From a virus (lineage: Duplodnaviria > Heunggongvirae > Uroviricota > Caudoviricetes), in the IMG/VR virus record IMGVR_UViG_2695420600_000007: a DNA stretch of 11,609 bases; one strand, given 5' to 3'. Positions 1-11,609 of the stretch are shown one piece after another. Within the stretch, counting starts at the first letter, position 1. Each line of letters opens with the position of its first letter. Below the pieces are notes generated by a model. That model did not search any database. It saw only the letters and a program-made list of their open reading frames with translations, and had not been told where the DNA came from. Both the position numbers and the translations under genes were made by a program.

Positions 1-36
1 TAACAGATGTCTGGAAATATAGGGGCAAATCCATTC
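1..36. repeat. Left copy of a perfect 36-bp inverted repeat (partner at 11570..11605)
   Basis: Positions 1..36 (TAACAGATGTCTGGAAATATAGGGGCAAATCCATTC) are the exact reverse complement of 11570..11605, checked base by base. The match is lost on the inward side of both copies; its outward extent is cut off by the window. Confidence 0.9.
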
Positions 37-68
37 TGCTGGTGCTTCATTTGCAGAGGACTACTAAT

Positions 69-461
69 ATGATGTTAGTACAAAAAGTACGGAATACGAT
101 GAAGCAGCTTATCAATGCTACTAAGAATCTGACAGTATCACGTGATGTTGATGTATTTGAACAAATTGCTTTTGATTACTCATTAACGAGTTTAAGTTTC
201 AGCAATGAACGCCGGGCAGGTAACTTTGCAATTCAGTATCTGATTTCCCCTAAACCAGAATCAGGTAATACAGCCCCATCCATCACTTATGATCAGATTA
301 TTAGTACTTTTGATAAAGAGAAAACTTCAGCATTCAGTGATGCAGGTTTAATAATGCTTTCGTGTTCTTATGAACAATCCGATATTGTCACAGATCCTAT
401 AACTGGCTCGGTTTCCCTATCCTTTACGATAAATATTCAAGTTACGGAAAAGACAAGATAA
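69..461 (+). CDS. Hypothetical phage structural protein (about 130 aa); position upstream of the fibre and tube genes would fit a tail terminator or completion protein, but this is not supported by sequence
   Basis: ORF track frame 42..461. Preferred start is ATG 69, preceded by AGAGGA at 55..60 with an 8-nt spacer; the GTG at 42 has no Shine-Dalgarno sequence. The frame is open back to the window edge, so an upstream start cannot be excluded. Contains I-S-PKPESG-N, which matches the C-terminus of the 3114..3587 protein. Confidence 0.5.
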   Translation: MMLVQKVRNTMKQLINATKNLTVSRDVDVFEQIAFDYSLTSLSFSNERRAGNFAIQYLISPKPESGNTAPSITYDQIISTFDKEKTSAFSDAGLIMLSCSYEQSDIVTDPITGSVSLSFTINIQVTEKTR

Positions 462-478
462 CTAAAAGGATATAAAGG

Positions 479-7678: not shown

Positions 7679-8301
7679 TGGACTCAGGTATATATACTAA
7701 TGCTAATCTTCTTAAGTACTGGAAGTTAGTCAGAGGTACAACCAAGACAAGATTAACACTAATGGAAATTATGAGCTTAGGCGTTAATGTTACTTGTTTT
7801 GATGTACTACCAAAAGGTACTAATGGTTTTCACTGGACGGATTCACTAATTGATATAGATCTGGATGGTTATAAGTACATAAGTTTCCCCGACATTATCA
7901 GTGGTTCATTACCTTCATATTCTGAACAAAAGGGCATGTCTAATGATGCTATCAATTTTAAAATTAGCAATGTAAACGCCTCGGTTCGTGCTCTTGCCCT
8001 TGGTGGTTTCTTGAAAGATGCACAGATGAATATCAAGTTAGTAATTCTCAATCCATATGATAGTACTGTAATTGATTCAATGCTCATGTTTACGGGGTTT
8101 ATTGACTATGTACAGGCAGTAACTGATCCAAATCAGAAGCAAAACGAAATGACTATATATGTGAATTCTGTCTATAAGAAATTAGACAGACAACCTGCAT
8201 TAATTGCCGCCAACTCAGTATATCAATCTTACTATAGAAATGATGAGTACTTTAGTCTGTTAGGTCAAGTTAATCAAAATCAGAACTGGAAATACAAGTA
8301 A
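7678..8301 (+). CDS. Minor tail protein, gpL-like
   Basis: Coupled to its neighbours by TAATG overlaps at both ends. Size (207 aa) and position match lambda gene L. Similarity is loose and pattern-level only. Confidence 0.5.
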   Translation: MDSGIYTNANLLKYWKLVRGTTKTRLTLMEIMSLGVNVTCFDVLPKGTNGFHWTDSLIDIDLDGYKYISFPDIISGSLPSYSEQKGMSNDAINFKISNVNASVRALALGGFLKDAQMNIKLVILNPYDSTVIDSMLMFTGFIDYVQAVTDPNQKQNEMTIYVNSVYKKLDRQPALIAANSVYQSYYRNDEYFSLLGQVNQNQNWKYK

Positions 8302-8705
8302 TGAAAAATCTACATAATGAAGTAATGAGTATTATTCAGTACTCAATTGATAACCCATATAAGTATGGTGATAACGATTGCAACATTATAGTACTACGCC
8401 TTATTGATTTAATTAATGGTACTACACAGTTAACTAATCGCCAGTATTCGAGCATTAAAGAAGGTATAGCAGGTTTAAACAAGGAAGGATGGAACCATAC
8501 AGGGGAAATTGTTGAAGCGTACTGTAAGCCAGTACAAGCCACTATAGACGGTGATATCTGGTTAGATCCTGACAACCCATTAATTATGGCAGTAGTGGCA
8601 TCTGGTCGGGTACTTGGAGTAAATGCTGATCATGATGGTTTCGAACTTCAACCAAAACCAACAGAGGGAACATATTACAGAGTAAGGAAACAGAGAGATG
8701 GGTAA
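8301..8705 (+). CDS. Small tail tip assembly protein, possibly an NlpC/P60-like (gpK-related) domain
   Basis: Occupies the gene K slot. Candidate catalytic Cys in [12 protein letters not shown] and a downstream His in WNHTGEIV are spaced like the NlpC/P60 Cys-His core. Only 134 aa, with no JAMM/MPN motif visible. Confidence 0.4.
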
Positions 8706-11609
8706 GAGTTTAGGGGGCTTTTTTGGAGCCATAATTACGGCAGTTGTCGTCGCGGCTGCTGTGTACTTTTCAGGAGGTACAGCATTAGCAGCAATAGGTT
8801 GGGGTGCAGCAGCCGGATCTTTGTCATTAGTTGCAAGTTCTATGTTAGGTCAAATCGGGGTTTCTGGATACGGTGATGTAGCAGACTCACTAAGTAGAAG
8901 TACTTCACCAACTACTGGATTACCCGTTATATACGGTGGAGAACTACCACATAAAAATGGTGTATCAGGCGGTTCCTTCATCCTAACCGGAAGCATAGTA
9001 GCCTGGTACAACGTACCAAATTCTGATTCTCAGTACTTATTCTCAGAACAGGCTGTAGCATATGCTGGTGTAGAAAAGCATATCGAGCAAATCTATATTG
9101 ATAATGAGCCAGTACTTGCAGTACCGATTACAGCAGAGGGTGTAGTACCTAAAGAAAGTATTGCAGCGAAGTACCAGAACTATTTGCAATTAGAAGTACG
9201 ATTTGGTGGTGACTATACGAGTACTAAAACTCTTGCTGCAAAATATGCTGGTTCGAAATGGACAAATAAATTTCTTGGTAAGGGTATTGTTAGTATCAGT
9301 ACCGTTATCTTAAAAACTCAAGATTCATTAGAAAATAATATTCTTGTTAATGATCAATTCGCTTTAACTGTAGAAATGAAAGGGCAGGTGATTTATGATT
9401 TTGTTGATGGTACTTATAAAGCAAGTAGTAACCCTCCTTCAATTATCTATGATTACTTAACAAATTCAATCTATGGTATGGGTATTGATCCATCATTGAT
9501 TAATACCGATACGTTTGCAGAAACCGCAGCATATTGTGATGCTTTTGAATATTATGCTAATGGTGCTATCAGTTATCAAAAAACCTATAAAGATAATATT
9601 GAAAATATCTGTCAGTCATTTGGCGGCATCATGTATGTACATGCCGGACAAATCTGTATTACCACAGACCGCAAATCGGTATCCGTAGCCTCATTTGATG
9701 AGCGTAACATGGTAGGGGCGGTACAGGTTTCTACTTCTGGCGGTACTGACTACTTCAACGTAGTCGATTGCAAGTTTACTAACCCTGAATCGATGTACAC
9801 CACTGACGTAGTACGTATCCCTTCCGATATCACTACGGATGAAGCAGTACAGCATGATGGACAGGTCATAGCATTATCACGCGATTACTCATGGTCATAT
9901 GATCAAGAGGTGATTGCAAAAATGGCTAACGTTGATGTACTCAAGGCTAAGTATGCCCTGCGTACTATCAGCTTCACCACAAGTGAAGGTTGGGATCTCG
10001 AAGTATGGGATGCGATCAATGTCAGCAATGAAGAACTCGCTATCTCAGGCAAATTTAAAGTACTCAATAAAGATATCAGCACCGATCAAGAGAACGTTGG
10101 CTATGTAACCATCACGGCAGTAGAAGCACCTGATGCAATGTATGATGGTATTGATCCGGGTATCTGGTCGCCTGGTGGGGTAATTAACTTCCCTGAACTA
10201 CAGGTACTACCGCCAACGAACCTACAGGCAGTACGTAAGGGGAATACTACTTCTGGTTCAATCGTGGATCTTACCTGGGATGCTTCACCAGATCCGTATC
10301 TGCGTGGGTACTATGTTTACTACCGTCTTAACGGTTCCAGTACCTGGACGTATGCGGGGCAGACTGGCGTACAGAAGCTTGATTATGAATTATTTGGATT
10401 GTCTGATACTGCAAGCTACGACTTTTCGGTAGAGGCTTACAACAACTTAGGGCTGGTATCCAAGAAGCTTTCCCTAACTGGCATTGTTCCAACATTCAAC
10501 TTTGCACTACCTGCGGTAACGCGTGTAGTACTGACAAATAAAACAGAATCAGCGTATGTAACTGACTCACCAGATTTCAATATTGCCTGGGATTCACAAA
10601 AAGATATCAGAGTGAATAACCGATCATTTAGTGAGTACTTCAAGTATTACGTTATTAAAATCTATGACGGTACTAAATTAGTAGATACATTCTATACGCA
10701 AAGTAATGCCTTTAATTTCACTCTTGAAATGAACCGTCTGAAAGTACGTAAGCCTACCATTGGTATTATCGCACAGGGATTTAATGATGGTACATATTCA
10801 GAGGAAGTGAAAATAACCGTAGAGAATAAACAGTGTGGTTTAGTAGAGGATGTTAGCTTTACGGGTGGTTTTGGTAATTTGTTTGCTTCATGGACTAAAT
10901 CTACTGAACGTGATTATGCAGGTGCGATTATCAGTATTGTTAATGGTACTAATACACGTATATTCACCAGTTATGCACCTGAATTTGATTCAATACCAAA
11001 CATCACTGATGGTGAGTATAAGGTTAAGATGGGATTCTTTGATGTGTTTGGTACTGATGATATTCAATATTGTCCAGAACAAACAATCAGTATCAACTCC
11101 AAGTACCAGTTTACCGAAGATGATGCAGAGGCAATTAACGGGATTCTTGATTTAGAAGATCGCCTGACTGGTACCATTAATGATGCGGTCAAAATTGCCA
11201 ATAAGAATACCAGTACTGTTATCAGTGCATCAGAGGCACGTACCAATGATAAAATCACTGCCAGTGAGAAAACGTTAAGTACTCAGATCACTGGGGTAAA
11301 TAGTTCCTTATCACAGAAACTTAGCACCGTTGAAAGTACTGCCAATGGTAACAAGGCCAGTATCCAGACACTATCCCAGACGGTAACGGATAACAACAAA
11401 GCTCAGACTACAGCAGTCTCACAGCTACGTAGTGATGTGAATGGACAGATTGCCACTGTTAACCAGTCAATGAGTACTAAAGCCGATAAATCTACTGTAG
11501 ATGCTCAGTACTCACTATCAGTACAGGCTAATGGCACGGTAGCTGGTATGCGTCTTGTTGCGAGTAGTGGAATGGATTTGCCCCTATATTTCCAGACATC
11601 TGTTATCAC
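8698..11609 (+). CDS. Central tail fibre / host specificity protein, gpJ-like with a gpI-C-terminal-like N-terminus; 3' end truncated by the window (at least 970 aa)
   Basis: ATG 8698 overlaps the upstream stop, with RBS AGGAAACAGAG. The frame stays open to the window end and is absent from the ORF track only because it has no stop. The Gly/Ala-rich hydrophobic N-terminus ([35 protein letters not shown]...LPVIYGGE) resembles the lambda gpI C-terminus. [21 protein letters not shown]...AAYCD resembles the conserved gpJ core. A fibronectin type III-like module ([17 protein letters not shown]...[12 protein letters not shown]) lies at about 10201..10470. Confidence 0.85.
11570..11605. repeat. Right copy of the perfect 36-bp inverted repeat (partner at 1..36), lying in frame within the 3' part of the J-like gene
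   Basis: Exact reverse complement of 1..36. In the J frame it encodes [13 protein letters not shown]. The window ends 4 nt past the repeat. Confidence 0.9.

Follow-up and report, generated by a model that had tools for sequence, protein, structure and literature searches.

What does a perfect inverted repeat signify when it encloses a whole block of phage tail genes? The question is raised by an 11,609-nt stretch of DNA, here called the window (IMG/VR record IMGVR_UViG_2695420600_000007; Caudoviricetes), in which a repeat search paired positions 1–36 with positions 11570–11605 at 100% complementarity over 36 nt, the arms lying 11,533 nt apart. The runner-up inverted pair in the window covers 28 nt at 71%, and about 1e-14 perfect 36-nt inverted pairs are expected by chance in 11.6 kb. 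A first-pass annotation, made from the letters alone, had described this repeat as exact, beyond chance expectation and possibly continuing to the left of the window. These observations hold, with the qualification that only 33 nt of each arm are element-derived. As explanations it offered a Mu G-, P1 C- or shufflon-type inversion system, a junction between diverged copies of a tail-fiber gene, or an assembly break at an inverted repeat of which both orientations coexist. Our analysis leads to a more familiar answer: the repeat almost certainly consists of the stubs of two independently inserted copies of the insertion sequence (IS) IS2, left at the ends of a short-read Shigella sonnei contig. 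The repeat is real yet ordinary and holds no new biology in itself.

The repeat arms and the right end of IS2

We compared the whole window by megablast with 5,426 complete E. coli genomes, 50,697 phages and 72,556 plasmids, collections from which Shigella chromosomes are absent. Matches were confined to the two ends of the window, where they involved thousands of E. coli/Shigella records and always fell under an IS2 or IS3-family transposase annotation. The interior gave zero matches in these E. coli genome, phage and plasmid collections, which do not include Shigella chromosomes. The repeat is not fiber-coding sequence, which disposes of a junction between diverged tail-fiber gene copies.

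To identify the matching end of the element, the annotated locus L002 served as reference, with a complete 1,331-bp IS2 flanked by the 5-bp duplication TTAGA. Read from the tip inward, the left inverted repeat (IRL) of this element begins TAGACTGGCCCCCTGAATCTCC... and the right inverted repeat (IRR) begins TGGATTTGCCCCTATATTTCC... The reverse complement of window 1–33 agrees with IRR at 33/33 positions versus 12/33 for IRL, and window 11573–11609 agrees with IRR at 37/37 versus 12/37 for IRL. The features at the two ends are as follows.

1–33, plus strand: left IS2 IRR terminus, the last 33 nt of the element; its body runs leftward past the contig end, IRL to IRR along the direction of the tail genes
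34–38, no strand: left target-site duplication TTCTG, 5 bp; its first 3 nt lengthen the apparent repeat to 36 nt
34–67, plus strand: 3' remnant of a 107-aa head-tail attachment-like gene, the last 34 nt including the stop, severed by the left IS2
8698–11572, plus strand: central (tail-tip, J-like) fiber gene, codons 1–958 of 1,100, cut by the right IS2 inside the Phage_Tail_Tip domain
11568–11572, no strand: right target-site duplication TGGAA, 5 bp, beside IRR in the window
11573–11609, minus strand: right IS2 IRR terminus, the last 37 nt of the element; its body runs rightward past the contig end, inverted relative to the left copy

Because both contig ends are the same end of IS2, two copies are required, in opposite orientation and each with its IRR toward the tail genes. 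A single IS2 on a small circle was considered and rejected, since an element has a single IRR, whereas here IRR stands at both ends. We infer that the source genome carries two full-length IS2 copies here, encoding the orfA/orfB transposase with its programmed −1 frameshift, because the sister contig L044 continues the left junction through 192/192 nt of IS2 and because complete 1,331-bp copies occur in loci L002, L038 and L039. Such complete copies, all with a perfect 5-bp duplication, are found elsewhere in the same prophage in other strains. The 192 nt of L044 also bear out the suggestion that the repeat might extend leftward beyond the window. At the right end the window holds four more IS2 bases (11606–11609, TCAC) than at the left; the repeat thus does not stop naturally at the left contig end but is truncated by it.

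The element-derived part of each arm is 33 nt, and the rest of the 36 nt is flank. Positions 34–36 (TTC) and 11570–11572 (GAA) are unique, non-IS2 sequence that happens to be complementary, and the two sides diverge right past these 3 bp. We attribute this complementarity to chance, at 1/64. A target preference of IS2 was entertained as the source of the shared TTC flank and rejected, as no pattern was common to the IS2 duplications compared: in a small sample of five others (including TTAGA, GTTTC, GTGGT and CTACT), none shared a sequence with one another or with TTCTG and TGGAA.

Target sites in sister prophages

The central fiber protein, compared with viral and genome collections, recovered the same prophage at 95–100% identity. 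Further loci were reached through the window's tape measure protein, among them the finished S. sonnei chromosomes 53G HE616528, CP179990 and CP026802, along with long contigs. Alignments of the window to loci L008, L005 and L016 end precisely at window positions 34 and 11572, and these three loci are uninterrupted at both points, reading ...CCGTAC|TTCTGCTGG... on the left and ...AGTGGAA|CGAGTAAC... on the right. Across all fetched loci (95–100% identity, the three finished chromosomes included), 14 have an empty left site and 15 an empty right one. Since the sites are empty in its relatives, the prophage has no native repeat at these positions.

At the left site both sides of the insertion can be read as DNA. 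The empty site reads ...CCGTAC-TTCTG-CTGG... in the 14 loci, and the outer junction ...CCGTAC-TTCTG-TAGACTGG, in which the element is IRL (tip reading TAGACTGGCCCCCTGAATCTCC), ends the short contigs L031 and L034, which derive from other S. sonnei read sets. The inner junction recurs in L044, where the 192/192 nt of IS2 are followed by TTCTGCTGG..., identical to the window. The left copy is thus flanked by the 5-bp duplication TTCTG at the DNA level, beside IRR in the window and beside IRL in L031 and L034. The gene that it interrupts is intact in L008 (972–1295, 107 aa; insertion point 1261|1262) and has a weak Phage_attach match (E-value 3e-4, below the Pfam cut-off). The insertion lies 34 nt before the gene end and replaces its final nine codons.

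At the right site the IRL side of the 5-bp duplication is seen at the protein level only, through a reading frame that runs out of the element. A 19,294-bp contig encodes P0124 (WP_052993490.1), a 156-aa S. sonnei protein with the N-terminus MILVVWRFRGPVYGTSNN... / MILVVWRFRGPVYGTSNNSAIYF...; the start of this protein is the translation of the reverse complement of IS2 IRL followed by TGGAA and CGAGTAAC..., beginning from a GTG within IRL. Of the alternative spacers tried (none, A, GGAA and GTGGAA), none reproduces this N-terminus. Two protein fragments, P0112 and P0113 (on 37 and 12 contigs), start at fiber codons 961 and 960, directly past the right site, and contigs reached from P0089 and P0092 (L035–L037) have either an empty site or a different break. 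A further S. sonnei protein, P0123 (HAY9648327.1, on a 582-bp contig), marks a junction at about window 11572: its N-terminus, QGASLTSNN..., corresponds to the IS2 IRL tip, a single A and CGAGTAAC, a junction 4 nt shorter than that with TGGAA. This variant is either a small deletion beside the IS or a separate insertion event.

The intact fiber gene encodes 1,100 aa (L008 10001–13303), with PF09327 (Phage_Tail_Tip) at aa 927–1019 as well as PF13550 and fn3 domains. The right insertion point, 12875|12876, lies within codon 959, so that the right IS2 removes 142 residues of the tail-tip fiber. A truncation of this kind probably disables the phage, through particle formation or adsorption.

The two copies also occur apart. 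In L044 the left site is demonstrably occupied, the right site is empty and the 1,100-aa fiber gene is intact; the first bases of L045 and L046 coincide with the left site, which suggests that it is occupied there too, and these two contigs likewise have an empty right site and an intact fiber gene. As the left insertion occurs without the right, two independent transposition events took place. The double insertion was found on the window's contig only, a contig recorded in two samples. These data also bear on whether the tail module moved as one unit within an IS2-based composite transposon, as a segment flanked by two IS2 copies might suggest. Each copy has a duplication of its own (TTCTG and TGGAA) instead of one around the whole unit, the segment is collinear with its native neighbors in uninterrupted prophages, and the left copy stands alone in L044. 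Moreover, both outer ends of such a unit are IRL; Lewis and Grindley reportedly found that IRL is not a donor end in IS2, so that an IRL-ended unit would be immobile. We regard transposition of the module as a unit as extremely improbable.

The same junctions speak to a fold-back or chimeric assembly, in which one junction would be real and the other made by the assembler. The position of the repeat exactly at the contig ends is what such an artifact would produce. Against it, the left junction recurs in other assemblies and read sets, on its inner side in L044 and on its outer side in L031 and L034, and the right junction is backed by P0124 together with the fragments P0112 and P0113. We give a fold-back origin almost no credence.

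The contig break and the question of inversion

The window is an entire contig, CXCN01000131.1 (range 1–11609), of the draft S. sonnei assembly GCA_001251255.1, as established by exact look-up of its 858-aa protein, which occurs on one contig; the window's proteins carry S. sonnei names at NCBI (CSP84355.1 / WP_052993502.1). The repeat therefore sits at the physical contig ends, the position expected of an assembly break at a dispersed repeat and one that the first-pass annotation had itself listed as telling against a true invertible element. IS2 is among the five IS families expanded in all Shigella, and reference Shigella chromosomes carry 229–348 IS insertions each, with substantial variation between strains (PMC7373316). 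The sequence of events that we propose starts from a lambda-like siphovirus prophage in the S. sonnei chromosome, of which the window is an 11.5-kb piece. Two copies of the 1,331-bp element IS2 (IS3 family) inserted independently and in opposite orientation, with their IRR ends facing the tail genes. As IS2 is multi-copy in S. sonnei, a short-read assembler would be unable to cross either copy, and the contig would stop a few dozen bases into each, leaving stubs of 33 and 37 nt that mimic a perfect terminal inverted repeat. The break itself was thus most plausibly produced by repeat collapse. Of the proposals made at first pass, the assembly break at an inverted repeat survives in part: the whole contig does end in the repeat, but the cause lies in multi-copy IS2 and not in two coexisting orientations.

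Several points weigh against this account. The window shows only 33 + 37 nt of IS2, full length being extrapolated for this genome. The stubs are unequal (33 versus 37 nt), unlike those of a pure de Bruijn unitig, so that trimming or extension after assembly must be assumed. The outer junction of the right copy is known solely as protein sequence (P0124), and it is a neighboring RefSeq accession number that suggests placing this protein in the same assembly. Finally, the complementarity of the 3-bp flanks calls for a 1/64 coincidence, and the sample of duplications behind that judgment is small. Two such IS2 copies make a concrete prediction: other contig ends of GCA_001251255.1 should carry ...CCGTACTTCTG+TAGACTGG and CCAGTCTA+TGGAACGAGTAAC.

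An inverted pair of IS2 copies could also act as a substrate in its own right. RecA-dependent homologous recombination between the inverted 1.3-kb copies would flip the 11.5-kb tail module, with both orientations present in a culture or lineage. The required substrate, an inverted IS2 pair 11.5 kb apart, exists, and all four junctions between IS and unique sequence are unaltered by inversion, so that the junction data are compatible with either orientation. Set against this, none of the fetched contigs links outside-left to inside-right sequence, the double insertion is confined to a single contig (two samples), and an evident function is wanting, as both interrupted genes remain interrupted either way. 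We consider this kind of flip-flop quite unlikely, and the chance that a mixed-orientation population would be detectable is similarly slim.

A programmed site-specific switch of the tail fiber fares much worse. It would use the 36-bp arms as crossover sites for a recombinase outside the window, of the Gin/Cin/Hin/Pin type or an Rci shufflon. Mu, P1 and e14 are known to have programmed inversion systems, and an inverted repeat surrounding tail genes invites the comparison. The arms, however, are IS2 IRR, and both sites are empty, hence repeat-free, in prophages of 99–100% identity. A search for the Din-type core AAACCNNGGTTT returned one match with one mismatch versus 0.33 expected, nothing above chance. 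Where a shufflon would show multiple sfx repeats in both orientations together with rci, there is a single strong inverted pair and no integrase family in the window or its flanks. The segment holds no opposite-facing alternative fiber C-termini: all tail genes lie on the plus strand, and the one minus-strand gene (6547–7119) is unrelated. We know of no precedent for an invertase acting on IS2 ends, and a programmed switch at this locus seems to us vanishingly improbable.

The search for an enzyme points the same way. The first-pass annotation had correctly noted that the window lacks a recombinase gene, and we detected no serine or tyrosine recombinase domain in the window's open reading frames (ORFs). 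Its further proposal, that any enzyme lies outside, is true in a trivial sense, as the IS2 transposase genes would lie just past the contig ends. It fails for the recombinase that it had in mind: among the called genes within 10 kb on either side of the tape measure gene at 10 loci with intact copies (precomputed Pfam matches), there was no resolvase/invertase or phage-integrase domain, and only rve transposases were listed.

Tail genes, fiber insertions and known systems

Matches to Pfam and PHROG profiles confirm that the window content is a tail module. Besides the two interrupted genes, it comprises the following.

69–461, plus strand: unknown-function gene in neck/tail position, 130 aa in uninterrupted loci
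479–3055, plus strand: 858-aa tube-fiber protein with a tail-tube-like N-terminus, 25-aa tandem repeats, a fiber region and a Peptidase_S74 intramolecular chaperone
3114–3587, plus strand: major tail (tube) protein, 157 aa (PF08813, E-value 2.8e-8; phrog_158, E-value 5.8e-19)
3627/3639–3938, plus strand: tail assembly chaperone (phrog_344, E-value 1.6e-6; Phage_TAC_13 match below cut-off)
3971–4333, plus strand: 120-aa gene in G/T position, assigned by position only
4323–6536, plus strand: tape measure protein, 737 aa (phrog_13674, E-value 5.4e-86)
6547–7119, minus strand: 190-aa gene with a hydrophobic N-terminus; sole match phrog_3829 (unknown function), E-value 1e-5
7121–7678, plus strand: distal tail protein (phrog_1302)
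7678–8301, plus strand: tail protein (phrog_2048)
8301–8705, plus strand: DUF6950 protein (PF22262/phrog_2134)

The 130-aa gene at 69–461 has no Pfam or PHROG match; a longer ORF of 139–152 aa that runs in from the IS2 stub was set aside as an artifact, since uninterrupted loci give 130 aa. The 858-aa protein matches phrog_158 (major tail protein) over aa 2–150, tail-fiber PHROGs, and PF13884 over aa 749–797. Its aa 3–139 share 31% identity with the neighboring major tail (tube) protein, phrog_158 matching both, and its fiber region resembles T5-like L-shaped fibers. To judge from these sequence features, it looks like a tube-ring subunit bearing a side fiber. In a tblastn search of the 50,697 phage records with this protein, none covers 80% or more of it, and the C-terminal fiber part alone matches. 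A 75-bp (25-aa) tandem repeat lies within this fusion gene at window 1214–1511, and its copy number varies among S. sonnei isolates, giving variants of 808, 858 and 883 aa; L008 equals the window plus one unit. The 190-aa minus-strand gene, between the tape measure and distal tail genes, was called in most fetched S. sonnei copies and not in L043; it is moron-like and unrelated to fiber exons.

In the contig collection, 503 index blocks hold an identical tape measure protein, and these include three finished S. sonnei chromosomes; the closest tape measure protein of a deposited phage is just 35% identical. The GC content of the prophage interior is 40.2%, and that of the host chromosome, at about 51%, is well above it. 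Related prophages occur in Buttiauxella, Scandinavium, Enterobacter, Salmonella and Klebsiella. In L035 (6711–9336) the prophage end adjoins genes for proteins with MipA, aldo-keto reductase and aldose epimerase domains. A GIY-YIG (SegE-like) homing-endonuclease-type gene (L035 2547–2936, L039 21013–21444, L040 20902–21336) is located downstream of that for lysozyme, and its called length differs by isolate (129, 143 or 144 aa). About 1.2 kb upstream of window position 1, a protease-capsid fusion gene contains two nearby points at one or other of which nine contigs from different S. sonnei assemblies (L026–L034) start. Finished genomes carry this gene whole, at 614 aa; the shared starts suggest that in some lineages it is broken by another repeat or IS. 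Beyond this prophage, an IS2 end was found in the 171-kb Escherichia phage Ge15 (PP359696.1, 45118–45154; match H26) under a 'transposase InsD' annotation; the record points to IS2 having entered a large phage genome that was propagated on K-12.

Counting the right IS2, five independent IS insertion alleles were observed in the central fiber gene across S. sonnei genomes: three are of IS2, and the other two, with 3-bp duplications, are of an element of the IS3 family with IS911-like ends. In window coordinates the sites are 9059–9061 (L040), 9206–9210 (L038), 11492–11496 (L039), 11515–11517 (L038) and 11568–11572 (the window). Three of them (IS2 at 11492–96, the IS911-like element at 11515–17 and IS2 at 11568–72) share an 81-bp stretch where the Phage_Tail_Tip domain begins, and the other two are close to the gene's 5' end. 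We would call it a long shot that the cluster marks an IS3-family hot spot, or selection against the receptor-binding C-terminus, as opposed to neutral decay, and we hold as lightly the separate idea that the inverted IS2 pair could flip the tail module. Ascertainment bias could be a third source of the cluster. Strain-to-strain polymorphism of these insertions could act as a lineage marker.

For practice, the locus argues that terminal inverted repeats on short-read contigs be screened against IS ends before they are called invertible switches, hairpin telomeres or viral inverted terminal repeats (ITRs). It also adds a documented example of prophage erosion through IS expansion in S. sonnei, with the tail-tip fiber gene and a head-tail gene truncated in this case.

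Set beside known systems, the window resembles the Din-family segments (Mu G/Gin, P1 C/Cin and e14 P/Pin) in having an inverted repeat around phage tail genes. Those segments have native crossover sites of about 26–34 bp, an adjacent serine invertase with its enhancer, a segment of 3–4 kb and two opposite-facing sets of fiber C-terminal exons. Here, unlike there, the arms are IS termini absent from sister prophages, there is no invertase, and what they enclose is an 11.5-kb unidirectional tail operon. A near-terminal inverted repeat of more than 20 bp on a phage-like contig also resembles the ITR signal for completeness of viral contigs, and a completeness caller keyed to ITRs could take this fragment for a complete genome. 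Unlike an ITR-ended genome, however, the window is an internal prophage fragment whose terminase, portal, capsid and lysis genes are on other contigs. With IS2 itself, an E. coli and Shigella element whose terminal repeats are imperfect, the agreement extends to the stub sequences (IRR at 33/33 and 37/37, and 192/192 in the sister contig), the 5-bp duplications and IRL on the far side; nothing differs in kind, the contig simply ending inside the element and leaving stubs. The closest parallel at the level of the genome is the IS-driven decay and contig fragmentation described for Shigella (Hawkey et al. 2020, PMC7373316), in which, as here, strain-variable IS2 and IS911-like insertions interrupt genes and short-read contigs end at IS elements.

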